From: Alphaproteobacteria bacterium
Lineage (GTDB): Bacteria; Pseudomonadota; Alphaproteobacteria; CAAGCB01; CAG-977
Reading direction: 5' to 3'
Assembly (NCBI GenBank): GCA_017539865.1
Contig: JAFYCE010000078.1
Coordinates: 27,419 to 91,418 of the forward strand
DNA length: 64,000 nt
The translations under genes and the position numbers were made by a program. Shown here in pieces: positions 2,601 through 13,168 of this stretch; the stretch's first letter is position 1; each line of letters starts with the position of its first letter. The notes beneath the pieces were generated by a model. That model did not search any database, was not told where the DNA came from, and saw nothing but the letters and a program-made list of their open reading frames with translations.

Positions 2601-3530
2601 TTATTTTCCCTCTGTCTTAACAGGTTCCAGTTTCTGCGAATCCAAAGGCGTCAATTCATACTGCAAAATCAGGTGTTTGATAATATCAGGATATTTAACC
2701 GGTTTGTAGGGGAAATTTATTAGCAAATGAGCTACGGAATATCCCCTCATCGGATTATCCGTCCGTCTGTATTTGGCTCTGGCTATTCTGTAATTTTCAA
2801 AGTAGCCGTTCGTATTCAAATAATGAATCCGGCTTAACACCGCGTCATACAAAGACGGAAAGATTTTAATGCGGTATTGAGGGCCATCCTTTTGCTTTTC
2901 GTCAGGAACGGCGCCGTTTCCGTCCCAGTCGCGCTGATGAAAGACGGCATTATATTCCCGTGCGTAGCGGCTGGTTCCGAAACCGGAATCTTCCGCTGCG
3001 GTTGCCAGCAGCAATGTCGGCGTAACGCCGTCGACCTTGGGAATCAGAGTATCGAACAAAGTTTCCAAATCATCCGAAGGCTTAACATCGTAACGTGTCA
3101 CCCATTCTTTCAGCTTTTCCATGGATTCCGACGTCAAATCCCCGTTTTTATCAAATTCTTTTTTCAATATCAGGACTTGTTCGCGTTCCGCCGCCAAAGC
3201 CTCGTTCGCTTTCAGAATAACGGGCGTCATTATCTCGTAGAACAAGGCGGGACGAACCGCATCATATTTTTTCTTATTGAAATCTTTCGGAACGGACTGA
3301 ACGAAAATCCGCGGCACAGGCTTTTTTTCGGTCAAATGAAGCAACATATCATATCCGGCTTTTTTGAAATACCGTTGAAGCTGAGCCGTTTTATCTGCCG
3401 AAACGAAAAGCCCTTCATCCGTTTTGCGGACAACCGGCATGCTATTGTTAAAAAAAAGAAAAAAAACAGCGACGACCGAAAGTGCGATAACAACGCCGAC
3501 AATAATTTTAAGGATATTTTTTTTATTCAT
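2601..3530 (-). CDS. Bax-like protein with a glucosaminidase (FlgJ-type, PF01832-like) domain; N-terminal signal/TM anchor
   Basis: The segment ATAAEDSGFGTSRYAREYNAVFH resembles the AAAESGWGTSKLAR..NNLFG core of E. coli Bax and FlgJ muramidase domains. The ATG at 3530 (MNKKNILK) is more plausible as the start than the upstream ATG at 3599 used in the ORF track. Confidence 0.55.
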   Translation of the reverse strand: MNKKNILKIIVGVVIALSVVAVFFLFFNNSMPVVRKTDEGLFVSADKTAQLQRYFKKAGYDMLLHLTEKKPVPRIFVQSVPKDFNKKKYDAVRPALFYEIMTPVILKANEALAAEREQVLILKKEFDKNGDLTSESMEKLKEWVTRYDVKPSDDLETLFDTLIPKVDGVTPTLLLATAAEDSGFGTSRYAREYNAVFHQRDWDGNGAVPDEKQKDGPQYRIKIFPSLYDAVLSRIHYLNTNGYFENYRIARAKYRRTDNPMRGYSVAHLLINFPYKPVKYPDIIKHLILQYELTPLDSQKLEPVKTEGK

Positions 3531-3702
3531 AATCCGTTCCTTTTTTCCGTTTTTGCCATGATAGCCGACATCTTTTGAAAAGTCCTTTAAAAAAATCATA
3601 AAAAAACGATTTCACCGCTTGCAAAACCGAAAAGCGGCTCCTATATAGACTGCGACAAAAGCCCGAACGGGCGGAATTTAAAAATGAAAAGAGGTCTTTT
3701 TT

Positions 3703-5631
3703 ATGGGAAAAGTAATTGGTATTGACTTGGGAACGACGAATTCCTGCTTCGCTATTATGGACGGCAAGGACGCCCGCGTGATCGAAAACGCCGAAGGCGC
3801 GCGCACGACGCCGTCAATGGTCGCTTTCACGCAAGGCGGCGAAAAGCTGGTCGGACAGGCGGCCAAACGTCAGGCTGTCACGAATCCGGAAGGAACGTTC
3901 TTTGCAATCAAGCGTTTGATCGGCCGCCGATTTACGGACAAGCAGGTCGAAAAAGCGAAAACGTTGGTGCCTTATCACATCATTTCGGGTGAAAACGGTG
4001 ACGCTTGGGTGGAAGCGCACGATAAGAAATACGCGCCGAGTCAGGTTTCCGCTTTCGTTTTGCAGAAATTGAAAGAGGATGCTGAAGCCTTTTTGGGCGA
4101 ACCGGTTACGCAAGCCGTCATTACGGTTCCGGCTTACTTTGACGACTCTCAGCGTCAGGCGACAAAAGACGCCGGCAAGATCGCCGGATTGGAAGTCCTG
4201 CGTATCATCAACGAACCGACAGCGGCCGCTTTGGCTTACGGTCTGGATAAAAAGTCCAGCGGTACGATCGTCGTTTACGACTTGGGCGGCGGCACGTTCG
4301 ACGTGTCCATTCTGGAAATCGGCGACGGCGTTTTCGAAGTGAAATCCACGAACGGCGATACGTTCCTTGGCGGTGAAGATTTCGACGCGCGCATCATCAA
4401 CTATCTGGCCGACGAATTCCAGAAAGAACAGGGCATTGACCTGCGTCAGGACAAATTGGCCTTACAGCGTTTGAAAGAAGGCGCCGAAAAAGCCAAAATC
4501 GAATTGTCTTCCGCACAGCAGACCGAAATCAACCTGCCGTTCATTACGGCGGACGCGACGGGGCCGAAGCATTTGAACGTCAAACTGACGCGCGCGAAAA
4601 TGGAATCCTTGGTCGAAGATTTGTTGGAACGCACGAAAATTCCGTGTGAAAAAGCGTTGAAAGACGCGGGCTTGAAAGCTTCAGACATTGACGAAGTCAT
4701 CTTGGTCGGCGGTATGACCCGTATGCCCAAGGTTCAGGAAATCGTCAAAGAATTTTTCGGCCGCGAACCGCATAAAGGCGTGAACCCCGACGAAGTCGTC
4801 GCTTTGGGAGCGGCGATTCAGGGCGGCGTCTTAAAGGGCGACGTCAAAGACGTTTTGTTGCTAGACGTCACCCCGCTGTCTTTGGGAATTGAAACGTTGG
4901 GCGGCGTGTTTACGCGTTTAATCGACCGCAACACGACGATTCCGACACGCAAATCGCAAGTGTTCTCGACGGCGGAAGACGGTCAGACGGCCGTGACGAT
5001 CCGCGTGTTCCAAGGCGAACGCGAAATGACGGCGGACAACAAACTGCTCGGCCAGTTCGACTTGGTCGGCATTCCGCCCGCACCGCGCGGCATGCCGCAG
5101 ATCGAAGTCACGTTCGACATTGACGCGAACGGCATTGTGAACGTTTCCGCAAAGGATAAGGCGACCGGCAAGGAACAGACCATCCGTATCCAGTCTTCCG
5201 GCGGATTGAGCGAAGCCGACATCGACAAGATGGTCAAGGACGCCGAAGCCCACGCTTCCGAAGACAAGAAACGCCGCGAAGCCATCGACGCGAAAAACAG
5301 GGCGGAAAGCCTGATTCATGAAACCGAAAAGAACATCAAAGATCTGGGCGACAAGGTTTCCGCCGCCGACAAGGAAAAAGTCGAAGCGGATATCAAAGAG
5401 CTTAAAGATGTTCTGGAATCCGGCGATGCCGAAAAAATCAAAGGAAAGACGGAAGCTTTGATGCAATCCGCCATGAAGATCGGCGAAGCTCTGTATAAAG
5501 CGCAGCAAGCCGAAGCCGCCGCAGGCGCGGCCGGCGCTCAGACTTCCGGTGCGGACGCTTCCGCTTCGACGGAATCAAAACCGGATGAAGGCGTTGTCGA
5601 TGCCGATTTTGAAGAAGTCAAAAAAGACTAA
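3703..5631 (+). CDS. dnaK: Molecular chaperone DnaK (Hsp70)
   Basis: Contains [17 protein letters not shown] and the full Hsp70 architecture; 642 aa. Confidence 0.98.
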
Positions 5632-5658
5632 TCTTTTCTGATATATAACCGTTCGGAG

Positions 5659-5695
5659 AGGAAAATTCCCCTCCGGACGGTTTTCGCGTAATTGA
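5659..5695 (+). terminator. Stem-loop between dnaK and dnaJ (attenuator or terminator)
   Basis: Sequence ccgttcggagagg-aaaattc-ccctccggacgg followed by ttttc. Confidence 0.4.
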
Positions 5696-5710
5696 TATAA
5701 GGCTGAAAAA

Positions 5711-6868
5711 ATGGCGAAACAGGATTACTACGAACTTTTGGGTGTCAATAAAAACGCTTCCGACGCGGAAATCAAAAAAGCGTATCGCACTCTGGCGATG
5801 AAGTACCACCCCGACCGCAACCCCGGCGACAAGGAGGCGGAAACCAAATTCAAAGAAGTGACGGAAGCGTATGAAATCCTGAAAGACAATCAGAAACGTG
5901 CGGCTTACGATCAATACGGCCATGCGGCGTTCGCACAGGGCGGCGGAGCCGGAGGCTTCGGTGGCGGCTTCGGCGGGTTCAATTTCGGTTTCGGCGGCGG
6001 TTCGGGCGGCGGCTTCGGCGGCATCTTCGACGACATTTTCAGCGAATTCATGGGAGCGGCCGCCGGCGGACGAAGCAGAACCTCACAACAGGGGCAACGC
6101 GGCGCAGACATCCGCTACGATCTGGAAATCTCTTTGGAAGAAGCTTACACAGGTCTGAAAAAAGAAATCGAAATCCAGACGGCCGTCAAATGCGACGAAT
6201 GCAACGGCACGGGCGCGGCCGCCGGCTCCAAGGCGGAAACATGCGACATGTGTCACGGTACGGGACGCGTGCGCCGTCAATCCGGTTTCTTTATTGAAGA
6301 ACGCACTTGCCCGACTTGCCACGGTACGGGACAAGTAATCAAGAATCCCTGCAAAAAATGCCACGGCACGGGCAAGGTCGCGCAGAAAAAAGTATTGGAA
6401 GTCAACATTCCCGCCGGTATTGACACGGAAAACAGAATGCGTCTGTCCGGACAGGGCGAAGCCGGTTCAAACGGCGGACCGAACGGCGATCTGTATATTT
6501 TCGTTCACGTCAAGCCGCACCCGTTGTTCAAGCGGGAGGCAACGGATTTATACTGCGACATTCCCGTTTCGATGGTAACGGCGGCATTGGGCGGCACGAT
6601 TGAGATCCCCTGCATTGACGGCACAAAAGAAAAAGTCACGATCAGCGCGGGAACGCAGTCCGGCGACGAAGTCCGCCTGCGCAAAAAAGGGATGTCCGTC
6701 CTGCAAAGCAAAGGTTTGGGCGACCTGTTCGTCCGGTTCAAGGTTGAAACACCGACCAAGCTGACGGCGAAACAAAAAGAACTGTTGAAACAGTTTGAAG
6801 CGGAAAGCAACGAAAGCAGTCCGGAATCCAACGGCTTTTTTGAAAAACTCAAGGACTTCCTGAAATAA
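5711..6868 (+). CDS. dnaJ: Chaperone DnaJ
   Basis: J-domain with HPD (KYHPDRNP), a Gly/Phe-rich linker, four CxxCxGxG zinc-finger repeats, and a C-terminal domain. Confidence 0.97.
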
Positions 6869-6876
6869 TGATTTTT

Positions 6877-6910
6877 CTTGACAAAACTAAAATTTCGTCC
6901 AACACTCATA
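6877..6910 (+). promoter_or_regulatory. Conserved promoter block (copy 1) upstream of paralog A1
   Basis: cTTGACAaaactaaaatttcgtccaacactcat. A near-identical block, cTTGACAaaaacaaattttcgtccaataatgat, lies at 7864-7896 upstream of the paralogous gene. Both carry a consensus -35 hexamer. Confidence 0.55.
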
Positions 6911-6940
6911 AACAGATGCCCTTTGTTTCAGGAGAAAATC

Positions 6941-7720
6941 ATGCCTCTTTCAGGTGTTGAAGATTTTAAGAATGTTACCGCTTATCCGTCCGGACGCGAT
7001 GTCGCTACGGGCAAGGAAACGTCGTCGAGATACGCTAAAACGCTGGCGGCTGTATGCGGTGCGGCTCTTTTCACCGTCGGAATCGGTTGGGATCTGGTCG
7101 CTTATACGGATGCGGCCAATTACCCTGCGGAAGAAAAGGCGGCATTAACGGCGGAATACGATACGGCATTGCTGGCAACGATCGATTCTTTGCATAATAC
7201 TGGCCTGTCTATGGAAAACTCCGTCGAAAAAGGCGTTCTGATGCAGACGAACCGTGCGAAATACAAAATGAGCGTTAAAGACGCGGAAGCGATTATCGTT
7301 ATGAAGCACGCGAATCAACGTCTGGCTCAATCCCGTAAAATAGACCATATCAATAAACGCAGCGAAACCTCTCTGGGCTTTAGCGCGACCAGAGCCGCGA
7401 TGGGATTTAGCGGGTTGACGGTGGACGAAGAAACCGTTTACGACACGGTTTATGCCTACAAACCCGAATTCCGAAATCAACTGGCCGAAGATATTCACCT
7501 TTACCGAACGGCCGTTCAACAAAAAGCGACAGAGGCCGAAATCGCCGCCGACACGACGACGCACGCCGCCGTTCGGGATACCGTTCCCGCAGCTAAAATC
7601 GAAATCGGCAATAAACCGAACAAGGATTTCCGCGCCTATCAATCAAATATTCAGAAGCAGCTGAACGTCAAAGGTCTGTCCGCGGCGGCCATAGCCGCAA
7701 AAAAGGGTAATTCCAGATAA
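6941..7720 (+). CDS. Hypothetical protein, paralog A1 (N-terminal VTAYPSGR motif, one predicted TM segment)
   Basis: The ORF track extends it to 6878, but homology with the downstream paralog begins at MPLSGVEDFKNVTAYPSGRDVATGKETS. No function recognised. Confidence 0.6.
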   Translation: MPLSGVEDFKNVTAYPSGRDVATGKETSSRYAKTLAAVCGAALFTVGIGWDLVAYTDAANYPAEEKAALTAEYDTALLATIDSLHNTGLSMENSVEKGVLMQTNRAKYKMSVKDAEAIIVMKHANQRLAQSRKIDHINKRSETSLGFSATRAAMGFSGLTVDEETVYDTVYAYKPEFRNQLAEDIHLYRTAVQQKATEAEIAADTTTHAAVRDTVPAAKIEIGNKPNKDFRAYQSNIQKQLNVKGLSAAAIAAKKGNSR

Positions 7721-7789
7721 CCCCGATAATCAACCTTTTCATTTCCGAAGCCCTTTATAAAATCCAACAAAATTTTCAAAAGGCGGGAT

Positions 7790-7816
7790 TTTTCCCGCCT
7801 TTTTCAATACGGCTTA
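7790..7816 (+). terminator. Rho-independent terminator after paralog A1
   Basis: aaaaggcggga-tttt-tcccgcc followed by ttttt. Confidence 0.6.
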
Positions 7817-7863
7817 TTAGCGAAAATCCCCTGTCTTTTTTCGAAACGGATCGTCAAAAGCCG

Positions 7864-7896
7864 CTTGACAAAAACAAATTTTCGTCCAATAATGAT
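7864..7896 (+). promoter_or_regulatory. Conserved promoter block (copy 2) upstream of paralog A2
   Basis: TTGACA, then a 17 nt spacer, then AATAAT; shares the aaattttcgtccaa core with copy 1. Confidence 0.55.
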
Positions 7897-7923
7897 TTAA
7901 ATGGAATTTTGAAAGGGTTTGTC

Positions 7924-8823
7924 ATGTCTTTTATCTCTTTTCTTGAAAAGGATGTCACCGCTTATCCGTCCGGCCGCGAGGTCGCCGAAGGAAAGAAGAC
8001 GTCCGCCAAATATAAAAAGGCGATAGCAGGCATTTTGGCTGCGGGGATAGCGATATCCGCCGGAACGTATTACGATTCTCTCGCGCCGTGGTCTTCGGAA
8101 AACTATCCGACACAATATAAAATGGAAGTCACGACGGAATACGATTCGTCGCTGCTGTCAACGATTGATTCCATATATAACACCGGCGTTTCCATGGATG
8201 TCGCCGTTGAAAAGGGCGTTTTGCTGGAGGCGGGACGCGCCGCGCAGGTCGTCCGCAACGATCCGCCGGAAGAACAGAGAATCGTCAACGTCAAGGTTCG
8301 CGATTCGGTCATGGAACACAAAATCGCGCTGAATCACGCTCAACAGCGGGTCGAAGACGCGCGCGACACGGTGCAGACGGACAGCGGAACAGTCTTCGTT
8401 TACAAAGCGGATTTCCGCGATCAATTGGCTTCCGAAATCGATCAGAACGCGGCGAAGCTGCAGAAAATGGAAAACATGTCCGTTGTCGATCAGGTTTCCG
8501 CCAGCGTTCAGGATCTGAAAGATAATTACAACCGCCTGTCCAAGGAAAAAAGGGACGACGGTGAAAAGCATCGCGAACTGTCCTGCCGCGCCGGACAAAA
8601 CGGCGTTGTCGGCGTTGCCGGCATTCTGGCCGCCGGAGCCGCCAAGGAAGTCGTCGATTTCACCAAGAAAGTCACCAACGAGGATTTGCGCAACGCGTAC
8701 GGCGGTGTCGAAGGCGTTGTGGCGGATGGCGTTAAGGATATGAAAAACAACGTCAACGGTTCCCTTTACGGTTTCCTGCACAAATACGGCGATTGCGGAA
8801 AATGGTCGTCCGGCCGCGGCTGA
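7924..8823 (+). CDS. Hypothetical protein, paralog A2 (VTAYPSGR family; Gly-rich C-terminus)
   Basis: Shares with A1 the blocks VTAYPSGR[DE]VA.GK.TS..Y.K, ENYP, EYD..LL.TIDS..NTG.SM...VEKGVL, and a TM segment (AIAGILAAGIAISAG). Confidence 0.6.
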   Translation: MSFISFLEKDVTAYPSGREVAEGKKTSAKYKKAIAGILAAGIAISAGTYYDSLAPWSSENYPTQYKMEVTTEYDSSLLSTIDSIYNTGVSMDVAVEKGVLLEAGRAAQVVRNDPPEEQRIVNVKVRDSVMEHKIALNHAQQRVEDARDTVQTDSGTVFVYKADFRDQLASEIDQNAAKLQKMENMSVVDQVSASVQDLKDNYNRLSKEKRDDGEKHRELSCRAGQNGVVGVAGILAAGAAKEVVDFTKKVTNEDLRNAYGGVEGVVADGVKDMKNNVNGSLYGFLHKYGDCGKWSSGRG

Positions 8824-9014
8824 TCGCCGGCCGGGAAAGCATAATGCCGCACAGCCCGTCCGGAAAACGGTATCATCCCCCCTCCTTTTTTCAGGCGGGG
8901 GTTATTTTTTGATGCGATAAGAACGGCTCGTCTTTTTAAATCATATCTTATTGGCAGTTTTTCTTTTTTATTTTAGGATGTATCCGTTGTTTATTCCGAT
9001 AAAAGAGGTTTTGC

Positions 9015-9815
9015 ATGAAAATAGGCGTGACAGGATGCGCGGGCAGAATGGGCAAAATGTTGCTCAGCCGCATTATAACCAATAAAAACTGTGAATTATC
9101 CGGCGGATCCGAACGTCGGGAAAGCGGCTTTATCGGTCGCGACATCGGCGAAATTATCGGTGTGCGGCCGCTCAATCTGACCGTAACGGCCTATCCGTTC
9201 GAATTGTTTGAAGCCAGCGACGCCGTGATCGACTTCACCGCGCCCGCCGCAACGGTCGAACACGCCAAAATCGCCGCCGAAACCGGCAAGATTTTAGTGA
9301 CCGGTACAACAGGGCTGACGGCGGAGCAAATGGACATTTTGAAAAAATGCGCCGAAAAAACGGTCATTGTCGCTTCCCCGAACATGAGCGTCGGCGTCAA
9401 TTTGCTGTTTTCTCTGGTCAAGAAAGCCGCCGCAATCTTAGACCCGTCTTATGACATTGAAATCGTTGAAATGCACCATCGCAACAAAGCGGACGCGCCG
9501 TCCGGAACGGCTCTCGGACTGGGCAGAGCCGCCGCCGAAGGACGAAATGTTTCCCTGACAGGCACGGCGCGTTACGAACGGCACGGCAACACCGGCATCC
9601 GCCCGACGGGAGAAATCGGTTTCGCGGCTTTGCGCGGCGGCGACGTTGTCGGCGATCATTCCGTCATCTTTGCCGGTTCCGGCGAACGCGTCGAACTGAC
9701 GCACAAGGCATCCTCGCGTGAAATCTTTGCCGACGGAGCGATTCGCGCCGCCTTATGGGCACAGGGGAAAGCCGAAAATTTATATACAATGTCGGATGTT
9801 TTGGGGTTAGACTGA
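9015..9815 (+). CDS. dapB: 4-hydroxy-tetrahydrodipicolinate reductase
   Basis: Begins MKIGVTGCAGRMGK with a Rossmann motif; EIVEMHHRNKADAPSGTAL is the characteristic DapB motif. Confidence 0.9.
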   Translation: MKIGVTGCAGRMGKMLLSRIITNKNCELSGGSERRESGFIGRDIGEIIGVRPLNLTVTAYPFELFEASDAVIDFTAPAATVEHAKIAAETGKILVTGTTGLTAEQMDILKKCAEKTVIVASPNMSVGVNLLFSLVKKAAAILDPSYDIEIVEMHHRNKADAPSGTALGLGRAAAEGRNVSLTGTARYERHGNTGIRPTGEIGFAALRGGDVVGDHSVIFAGSGERVELTHKASSREIFADGAIRAALWAQGKAENLYTMSDVLGLD

Positions 9816-9849
9816 AAAACGCATTCAAACAAAAACGGAGCGTTTTTTC

Positions 9850-10365
9850 ATGAAAAAATTTCTTTTAGCATCGGCTTTTTTGTTCTTAACTTCGACGGCT
9901 CAGGCCGGAATGTACGTTTCCGGCGGCATCGGATGGAATTTTAAAAACGACAGCAAAACGACAGACCTTCAAAATATCAGTTTCAAATATGACGATTCCG
10001 CCTTGTTATCGGCGGCCGTCGGTTACGCTTTCCCCGTCGTGCGCGTCGAACTGGAAGGTTTATACAACAAAAGCGATATGAAAAACGTCGATAGCCACAT
10101 GACTACGGGAGCCGCCTTCATCAACGCTTACGCCCGAATTCCCGTCGTAGGGATTTATGCCGGCGCAGGAGCCGGATACGCTTCCGTCAAAAGCAAAAAA
10201 ACACCCGTCTATCAGGGAATGTTGGGTGTCGAATACGGTCTGGGCTTTGTCAATCTGGGCGTGGAATACAGACACATTCAATCGTCCAAAGACATTAAAA
10301 AGTTTAATGAAAAATCCGAACTGCGCAACGACGCTCTTTTGTTAAAAATGCGCTTCGAATTTTAA
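9850..10365 (+). CDS. Small outer-membrane beta-barrel protein (OmpA-like/Opacity porin family)
   Basis: Signal peptide [19 protein letters not shown], alternating hydrophobic beta-strand pattern, and C-terminal ...MRFEF ending in aromatic Phe. Confidence 0.65.
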
Positions 10366-10397
10366 GCCCTCCCCTCTTATTTCATCCGGAGGACACT

Positions 10398-11183
10398 ATG
10401 GATACGAAAGCTTTCTTTAAATTGACTTACGGGCTTTACCTCGTCGGCGTGAAAAACGGCGATAAATTCGGCGGCTGCGTCATCGACGCGGTCATGCAGA
10501 CGACCGTCGATCCGCCGACGTTGGTCATTTCGTCAAACAAATGCACCAAAACAAACGAATGTATCGGAAAAACGAAAGAATTTACGCTGTCCGTTCTTTC
10601 CGAAACGACGGATCCGTTCGTCATTGCCAATTTCGGCTTTCAATCCTGCCGAACGGTTGAAAAATGGGAGAAAGTGCCGCACCGTTTCCTGAACGGCCTG
10701 CCCGTTTTGGATGACGCTGCGGCTTATCTGCACTGCAAAGTGACCGAAATCAAAGAACTTTCGACGCACACGTTGTTTTTCTGCGATATCATCGACGCCG
10801 TTGACAGTGCAAAAAAAGCGTTGAGCTACACGACTTATCAAGAATCCTGGAAACCGAAAGTCATGGAAGCTTTCAAATCCGGAAAATGTTCACTCACCAA
10901 CCAGAAAGGAGAAAAAACAATGACGAAATGGGTCTGTAAAGTTTGCGGATATGTTTATGAAGGCGACGAATTGCCCGAAGATTACGTCTGTCCCGTTTGC
11001 GGCGTAGGTCCGGAAGAATTTGAAAAGGTAGAAGAAAAACCGGCCGCGAAACCCTCTACGGAAAAGTGGGTCTGTTCCGTTTGCGGCTATGTTTACGACG
11101 GCGACACCCCGTTTGAAGAACTGCCGGAAGACTATGTCTGCCCGATCTGCCAGCAACCGAAAAGCGTTTTTGAAAAACAATAA
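10398..11183 (+). CDS. Flavin reductase-like domain fused to two C-terminal rubredoxin domains
   Basis: N-terminus (about 1-160) resembles flavin reductase/HpaC-like FMN-binding proteins. Two rubredoxin modules follow: [13 protein letters not shown]...YVCPVCG and [13 protein letters not shown]...YVCPICQ. Confidence 0.7.
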
Positions 11184-11202
11184 AGATGAATAATACTAAA
11201 AA

Positions 11203-11231
11203 AGAGGGCTTTTCAGCCCTCTTTTTGCTTA
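11203..11231. terminator. Bidirectional terminator between the rubredoxin-fusion gene and htpG
   Basis: aaaaagagggc-ttttca-gccctcttttt. Confidence 0.6.
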
Positions 11232-13088: not shown

Positions 13089-13168
13089 AGTATAACCTCC
13101 CGTAAACGAAGTTCTAAATAGGTTCTTTTACGGCGGATTTCAACCCTTTTGAAGAAAGATTTTTTATC

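Follow-up and report, generated by a model that had tools for sequence, protein, structure and literature searches.

Directly downstream of dnaKJ, in a 64-kb stretch of an Alphaproteobacteria bacterium contig (JAFYCE010000078.1 of assembly GCA_017539865.1; the whole stretch is called the window below), lie two adjacent genes on the same strand, here named A and B. Our results show that A and B are old duplicates from a tiny family of predicted envelope proteins, each with its own promoter, ribosome-binding site (RBS), open reading frame (ORF) and terminator. According to our profile and residue analysis, the C-terminus of B is a divergent prok-SAA/Lipocone domain with an intact H/E/D/D/N/G signature, and its fusion to the uncharacterised N-core family, to which both genes belong, is new here. 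The block shared by the two upstream regions is best supported as a selected, family-specific sigma70-type promoter.

A and B align with 36% identity over 179 amino acids (aa) (BLASTP, E=5e-34), which confirms that they are tandem paralogs, and the sequence blocks that an initial annotation of this DNA had listed as common to both are real. As that annotation also stated, the pair sits directly after dnaKJ, the -35 element of gene A beginning 9 nucleotides (nt) past the dnaJ stop codon. A single transmembrane (TM) helix had been proposed for each protein; it is clear in A (residues 35-53, KD19 1.83), whereas B has only a weaker Ala/Gly-rich hydrophobic stretch, after which a possible cleavage site is predicted between AISA and G. 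The tail of A is basic and family-typical and ends in ...KKGNSR. The C-terminus of B is Gly-rich, as had been noted, but it forms a folded conserved domain and not a low-complexity tail.

This C-terminal part of B belongs to a widespread module of ~95 aa, whose copies we call C-modules. The Lipocone active site comprises a His on helix 2 (H2), a Glu on H3 and an Asp on H4; in addition, H3 ends in a D/E, and H4 carries a polar residue, a capping Gly and the motif sNxxGR (PMC12419801). Prok-SAA has been placed in the SAA-Wnt (SAW) clade of the Lipocone superfamily, enzymes predicted to act on phosphate-linked lipid head groups, either cutting or exchanging them (Burroughs, Nicastro & Aravind, eLife 2025, PMC12419801). 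Of the Lipocone toxins, TelC alone has been characterised biochemically; it acts as a lipid II phosphatase (PMC12419801). In an alignment of 41 diverse C-modules, D14, H18, E44, K51, D70, D74, G85 and C93 are invariant, and C23, G29, G40, K43, D47, K73, N77 and G81 are near-invariant (D47, N77 and G81 at 90% or more). H18, E44 and D74 correspond to H216, E242 and D272 of B and make up the His/Glu/Asp triad expected of a superfamily member, while D47, N77 and G81 correspond to D245, N275 and G279 and provide the acidic residue at the end of H3, the polar residue after the H4 Asp and the Gly cap. B also carries the Cys pair C221/C291.

The link to SAA itself is made only by the profile of one subgroup of C-modules, characterised by the motif DNYxHR. 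Searched against 177,635 PDB sequences, this profile has SAA as its top 8 matches (best E=9.4e-4). Compared with the broad C-module profile, it gives 100% probability and E=1e-39, and it aligns over 79 columns with the SAA domain of protein P0092 (E=6e-5). P0092 has the same peptidoglycan (PG)-binding N-terminal half as the C-module protein P0010, but where P0010 has the C-module it carries a genuine Pfam SAA domain (44.4 bits, cutoff 30.8; profile positions 3-97 of 102). Sub-threshold SAA matches in the same register were obtained for 3 of the 41 C-modules and for 6 of 10 proteins of the DNYxHR subgroup. AlphaFold2 (AF2) models the C-terminal domain of B as a five-helix domain (predicted local distance difference test, pLDDT, 73-82); fold searches did not recover SAA. 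Because the profile chain leads to SAA and the six signature residues fit, we file the C-module of B as a divergent prok-SAA-like Lipocone domain, and by analogy with the superfamily it would be enzymatically active. The initial annotation had assigned no function to either gene, and neither has a direct Pfam or NCBIfam match; the C-terminus of B is now connected to prok-SAA/Lipocone. Searches of the PDB with the broad C-module profile returned chance matches only, for example to antibody light chains.

Several C-module relatives were encountered in other settings. The DNYxHR-type proteins P0131/P0192 (206 aa) belong to a cluster of 131 members, and P0192 was seen on 805 contigs, the longest reaching 2 Mb. 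In contrast to the family of the window, the subgroup is thus frequent in some well-sampled genome. Two IMG/VR viral contigs also encode relatives, at 257-484 of L019 and 5806-6300 of L020 (IMGVR_UViG_3300029094_000103; L numbers denote the loci that we compared). The L020 relative is of the DNYYHRKAMCE type and immediately follows a Gly/Ala-rich protein of 623 aa, with a tail-fibre-like ORF a short way downstream, a setting that suggests a virion-associated Lipocone protein in some phages. A scan of the viral collection with the DDGEKHRE alignment gave no match.

The N-core family is small. Word-seeded searches of 5.8 billion clusters found 5 relatives for A and 6 for B, whose only annotation is "MAG: hypothetical protein [Alphaproteobacteria bacterium]" (MAG, metagenome-assembled genome), and a profile search of 1.84 billion representatives returned 126 proteins. 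A further profile search, in which the number of candidates was capped, contributed no more. With closer homologs added to these representatives we obtained a set of 133 sequences, which local hidden Markov models split into 37 with the N-core and 98 with the C-module; both occur together only in the B orthologs. Family matches for A and B are absent from PHROGs and PADLOC as they are from Pfam and NCBIfam, and the PDB holds no relative of the N-core family.

All these proteins begin with a leader, FFKKDVTAYPSGR (M-x-L-x-x-FF-KKDV-T-A-YPSG-R), which persists in members that share no more than 20-25% of their residues overall. When metagenomes were scanned for the leader peptide, all matches were family members, so it is family-specific and not a general tag. 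In the family alignment the leader is followed by a basic stretch and then by a hydrophobic segment, which in most of the distant members ends in a lipobox-like [AST][AGS]C-G/S (for instance SMVAC-G or LLASC-G). Neither A nor B has a lipobox of the form [LVI][ASTVI][GAS]C: Cys39 of A lies early in the TM segment (AAVC), and B has no Cys there. The predicted periplasmic domain consists of three helices, a beta-hairpin and a long helix, and AF2 models its core with confidence (pLDDT 80-94; residues 60-140 of A at 83-94). One paralog type, of 153 aa, retains only the leader and the TM segment. A and B are predicted to be exported or membrane-tethered, with the core in the periplasm. It was also seen that 17 of 25 N-core proteins end in Arg, typically as ...G/S-R, after an Ala/Lys-rich amphipathic tail (window 7703-7717); this ending has no match to a known C-terminal sorting or processing signal.

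The proposal that a whole transcription unit was duplicated is borne out: each gene has its promoter, ORF and terminator, a sibling genome has a tandem run of four units, with part of the dnaJ 3' end copied among them. In L001/L002, where the A ortholog is 90% identical, the slot between dnaJ and dapB holds four paralogs (200 aa, A-type, 153 aa and B-type) against two genes here, so that copy number at the slot varies. Each of the four has its own promoter, and the terminator hairpin recurs. Upstream of the third paralog (g3) the final ~40 nt of dnaJ are repeated, together with the stop codon and the promoter, which means that the duplicated unit reached into dnaJ. The order differs in L021 (A-type, 200-aa type, 153-aa type). 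The distant locus L010 (GCA_037359095.1) reads dnaK-dnaJ-[lipoprotein-type N-core]-HNH-dapB, and L015/L016 carry two tandem N-core genes at another site. Orthologs of B (71-80% identity) are solitary and stand at unrelated sites, adjoining either GAF-HD/PmbA, or LMWPc and cas1-cas2.

A copied block of about 33 nt with a consensus -35 had been reported before both genes. We find the block and its -35 at both, as CTTGACAAAANNAAANTTTCGTCCAANA at 6877-6904 and 7864-7891, but it measures 28-30 nt, and its second variable position, given as t/a, is actually t/c. The block occurs nowhere else in the window, even with 3 mismatches (expected number 0.01; two or more occurrences in 0 of 100 shuffles). 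Its skeleton, TTGACA-N9-TTTYGT with at most 1 mismatch, is likewise confined to A and B in the window, and in ~90 kb of related loci it appears only upstream of family genes: at all four genes of L001, once per solitary B ortholog and once at the L007 cassette. Within the DNA available, no regulon wider than the family was seen.

When the A and B units are compared, the block is identical at 24/30 positions, whereas the 60 nt upstream and the 5' untranslated region reach just 7-15/30; higher identity returns only over the leader (25/30) and the conserved core motifs. Such an island with flanks at background level points to selection on a discrete element and not to a recent copy. Nine diverged promoters align as TTGACAA-(variable)-TTTtGTCcaA-a/t-rich. 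Seven diverged promoters share TTGACA and TTTYGTC (TTTYGTCC) with the 9 nt before it scrambled, and one of these seven serves a gene with an unrelated N-terminal half (L007). The L005 ortholog of B, at 80% protein identity, keeps TTTCGTCCAATAAT at 14 of 14 positions while 7 of the 9 preceding nt differ. The element also forms the right arm of an imperfect inverted repeat, GACAAAA-N6-TTTYGTC (at gene A, left arm GACAAAA and right arm TTTCGTC), with 6-7 of 7 positions complementary in seven promoters. The family promoter is sigma70-like by its motifs (TTGACA-17-AATAAT), and that consensus does not account for the TTTYGT element, whose TG is displaced by two nt from the register of an extended -10. 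The regulator site initially proposed for the aaattttcgtccaa core is plausible given the TTTYGTCC conserved in seven promoters and the 24/30 island, although no regulator was found. The spacer element TTTYGTCC and the inverted repeat would most likely bind a dedicated regulator.

The likeness of these promoters might instead reflect a strong sigma70 promoter and nothing more, maintained by common descent and gene conversion between paralogs. The best-conserved parts are indeed the -35 TTGACA and the -10-like A/T hexamer at 17-nt spacing, and TTTYGTCC is eroded in the distant members L010 and L012. In addition, the promoter of A shares 24/30 positions with that of B but only 20/30 with the promoter of its own ortholog, L001 g2, and the N-terminus of A also differs from its ortholog's. 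Both features suggest recombination, and some gene conversion is likely too. A conversion tract should, however, include the flanks, whereas identity reaches background within a few nt on both sides. TTTYGTC is moreover kept in seven promoters whose central 9 nt are scrambled, including the L007 gene with its unrelated N-terminal half, and this architecture is found at no other gene in the window or in the ~90 kb of related loci. We therefore regard this explanation as rather improbable and retain a selected, family-specific promoter.

The initial annotation had also raised a heat-shock link from the dnaKJ adjacency, which the promoter sequence does not bear out. The alphaproteobacterial sigma32 consensus is CTTG-N17/18-CYTATNT, and sigma32 promoters typically have a CC dinucleotide immediately before the -10. 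In the window, dnaK and htpG have promoters of this RpoH type, which provide useful internal sigma32 references for this genome. If the family block were a sigma32-type promoter, or if the genes were co-expressed with dnaKJ, A and B would belong to the RpoH regulon. The family promoters do share the TTG-N18-CC geometry of both references, including the CC, and the site directly after dnaJ is kept in L001, in L010 and, for a cassette, in L007. Nor is there a terminator between dnaJ and gene A, whose -35 follows the stop codon by just 9 nt, and transcription of dnaKJ may therefore read through into A. Yet the -35 is a perfect sigma70 TTGACA, the -10 region (CCAAYAMT) lacks the T that CYTATNT has at the third position, the additional TTTYGT element is missing from the dnaK and htpG promoters, and B orthologs retain their promoter at sites unrelated to heat-shock genes. 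RpoH control of the family genes is accordingly unlikely on present motifs, and we give membership of the regulon by either route only a small chance.

Coordinates of the two genes and of their signals are collected in the table below. The promoter of A was not listed by our promoter scan because its -10 is weak (3/6). That of B matches 11 of 12 consensus positions and is the best sigma70-like site within 3400-10500. The terminator of A (-18.6 kcal/mol, z=-5.2) folds better than all of 200 shuffled sequences (0/200 as stable), and its hairpin recurs after two paralogs in L001. No known RNA element was found by Rfam in 3400-9200. The 3' end of dnaJ contains another promoter-like site (6840-6869, +) that extends across the stop codon; it reads TTGAAA-18-AATAAT, has a TG ahead of the -10 and belongs to the segment that is copied upstream of the third L001 paralog (5727-5770).

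Table. Positions of the genes, domains and transcription signals in the window (bp, base pairs).
Feature	Position	Strand	Details
dnaK promoter, RpoH-type (comparator, outside the family)	3618-3646	+	CTTG-N18-CCTATAT
dnaK	3703-5631		
dnaJ	5711-6868		
Gene A promoter	6878-6906	+	-35 TTGACA 6878-6883; 17-nt spacer with TTTCGTCC 6893-6900; -10-like AACACT 6901-6906
Gene A, 259 aa	6941-7720	+	most likely start ATG 6941, about eight nt beyond the RBS AGGAG at 6930-6934
Gene A leader	6941-7039		residues 1-33
Gene A signal-anchor	7043-7099		residues 35-53
Gene A periplasmic N-core (predicted)	7118-7540		~residues 60-200
Gene A intrinsic terminator	7778-7808	+	11-bp GC-rich hairpin, then U-run
Gene B promoter	7865-7893	+	TTGACA 7865-7870; 17-nt spacer with TTTCGTCC 7880-7887; -10 AATAAT 7888-7893
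Gene B, 299 aa	7924-8823	+	start ATG 7924
Gene B N-terminal part	7924-8535	+	leader (1-33), Ala/Gly-rich hydrophobic segment (~34-50), N-core (~57-200)
Gene B C-terminal module	8536-8823	+	residues 205-299; probable divergent prok-SAA-like Lipocone domain
Gene B intrinsic terminator	8878-8910	+	hairpin, then U-run; -16.8 kcal/mol, z=-2.4
htpG promoter, RpoH-type (comparator)	13116-13144	-	GTTG-N18-CCTATTT

The genomic setting of other C-modules bears on what B might do. In the dnaJ-dapB slot of L007/L008, on the opposite strand, lies a PG-binding and C-module protein without a signal peptide, and behind it come multi-TM ORFs of 114 and 94 aa that resemble each other. The layout of a standalone or PG-binding C-module gene with small multi-TM proteins after it recurs in L017 and L018. 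The subtype captured by the DDGEKHRE alignment was found in one species representative among 185,579 genomes, an Alphaproteobacteria MAG from the Hadza gut, in which both of two standalone C-module genes have a homologous multi-TM protein behind them. Because multi-TM genes follow them, the standalone C-modules look like the toxin partners of toxin-immunity pairs. By analogy B could be a toxin too, but Pfam and NCBIfam reveal no recognised trafficking or secretion domain in A or B (PAAR, LXG/WXG, RHS, VirD4-binding, MuF).

We favour, with moderate confidence, the view that the locus is a variable array of independently transcribed envelope genes, in which B carries a Lipocone enzyme and the promoter is specific to the family. 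Members, restricted to uncultured gut Alphaproteobacteria, would consist of a cytoplasmic leader of ~33 aa, a signal-anchor or lipoprotein signal, a periplasmic N-core and a variable C-end. By analogy with TelC and from the superfamily prediction, the C-end of B is expected to work at the periplasmic face of the inner membrane and there to hydrolyse phosphate-linked lipid head groups or exchange them, with lipid II/undecaprenyl pyrophosphate-linked precursors or phospholipids as candidate substrates. B would then be either an antibacterial effector, tethered or exported by Sec, or an enzyme that remodels the envelope, and A would be a paralog without the enzyme domain but with the ancestral basic tail. 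The family would grow and be shuffled by tandem duplication of a unit made of dnaJ tail, promoter, ORF and terminator at the dnaJ-dapB slot.

A number of results weigh against this view. The hydrophobic segment of B is marginal. Its C-module has no Pfam SAA match, and the broad C-module profile finds human SAA1 only weakly, albeit in the expected register (E=0.011, 3.7% probability), and P0092 not significantly. Within sNxxGR on H4, N-N-x-x-G is kept (KDMKNNVNGS), while almost every member has S, A or L where the Arg would be. The promoter motif decays in L010 and L012, and no regulator gene was identified for the block. Finally, no immunity-like gene follows B in any of its four contexts (window, L001/2, L004, L005/6), and no homolog of the multi-TM partner proteins is encoded in the window, which argues against a classical toxin. 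The same solitary state of B would suit a housekeeping or stress-responsive enzyme that acts on the cell's own envelope lipids, in carrier-lipid recycling or head-group modification, with A as a non-catalytic structural paralog. In agreement with this, B appears to be tethered to, or exported from, its own inner membrane (as predicted), its promoter looks strong and constitutive, and many Lipocone proteins have non-conflict roles in lipid, PG and exopolysaccharide metabolism (PMC12419801). An extremely narrow and patchy family whose copy number and location vary by strain is nevertheless atypical of housekeeping genes, and the nearest C-modules sit in toxin-immunity-like pairs; we consider a housekeeping role somewhat unlikely. 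An antibacterial effector is favoured by the toxin-immunity layout of the relatives, a self-directed lipid enzyme by the partner that B consistently lacks.

Two further possibilities give the N-core another role. In one, the leader and N-core form an unrecognised export or tethering platform with interchangeable C-terminal effectors and a dedicated promoter/operator, self-protection being provided by the N-core in cis or by paralogs such as A in trans. If true, this would be a new kind of polymorphic effector system, but we think it improbable. In the other, the N-core proteins would be a diversified periplasmic or lipoprotein immunity array against incoming Lipocone toxins, with B as an immunity-toxin fusion or a cis-inhibited toxin. 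Known and predicted Lipocone immunity proteins are all TM proteins or lipoproteins that act in the periplasm (PMC12419801). Tandem arrays of diverging paralogs with their own promoters in a variable slot of gut bacteria would also fit, and an immunity array would explain why B has no separate immunity gene. We consider this reading improbable.

Compared with known systems, B resembles the prok-SAA/SAW clade and animal SAA (PF00277) in having a soluble ~95-aa domain, predicted to consist of four to five helices, with the active-site pattern kept. C-modules hold the same architectural position as the true SAA domain of P0092, after a PG-binding domain, and they also occur in two-gene layouts with membrane proteins, as Lipocone toxins do. 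The module of B differs from prok-SAA in lying beyond Pfam SAA detection, in missing the Arg of sNxxGR and in its conserved Cys pair; its fusion partner is a membrane-anchored N-core with a leader, not described before, and it has no adjacent immunity gene. Like polymorphic toxin loci and orphan effector-immunity arrays, the family combines a conserved N-terminal part with variable C-ends, and its tandem paralogs lie at a strain-variable hotspot where cassettes are swapped. Unlike them, it has neither interleaved immunity genes nor a trafficking domain, and each paralog has a promoter and a terminator. Extended signal peptides (the extended signal peptide region, ESPR, of autotransporters) and lipoproteins with a long n-region have a conserved motif of ~30 aa before the hydrophobic core. 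The family leader likewise precedes a hydrophobic core, often with a lipobox right after it, but its sequence (FFKKDVTAYPSGR) is unrelated. A mechanistic template for B is offered by TelC, an effector of the Streptococcus intermedius type VII secretion system (T7SS), and its partner TipC, where a carrier-lipid phosphate linkage is attacked outside the cytoplasm and the immunity protein is membrane-bound or periplasmic (PMC12419801). TelC belongs to another Lipocone clade, uses the LXG/T7SS route and comes from a Gram-positive host, and no sequence or fold match to B was obtained.

The locus thus adds, from uncultured human-gut Alphaproteobacteria, what appears to be a divergent Lipocone branch that is undetectable by Pfam in gene B and occurs in a new fusion. 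It also describes an uncharacterised protein family with an unusual conserved leader, predicted to be cytoplasmic, and a C-terminal Arg, and documents a strain-variable hotspot after dnaKJ. With one domain, six signature residues, immunity partners that are either present or absent and a discrete promoter element, B would be a compact and testable case for prok-SAA action on envelope lipids, which bears on the biochemical role of animal SAA.

Other observations concern the neighbourhoods of the related loci. An HNH_2 nuclease gene occupies part of the dnaJ-dapB slot in L010/L011 (8746-9519), a sign that the slot accepts foreign or variable genes. Around the B ortholog of L005 (5747-6986) and L006 (2136-6572) we found cas2, cas1 and a 1042-aa ORF without a recorded Pfam match, which may represent a CRISPR-Cas locus with a large effector. 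L001/L002 contain an extra gene of 323 aa (L001 9784-10755, minus strand), without a Pfam match, between the flavin-reductase/rubredoxin gene and htpG. The corresponding place in the window (11183-11229) lacks this gene, which marks a second variable spot nearby.

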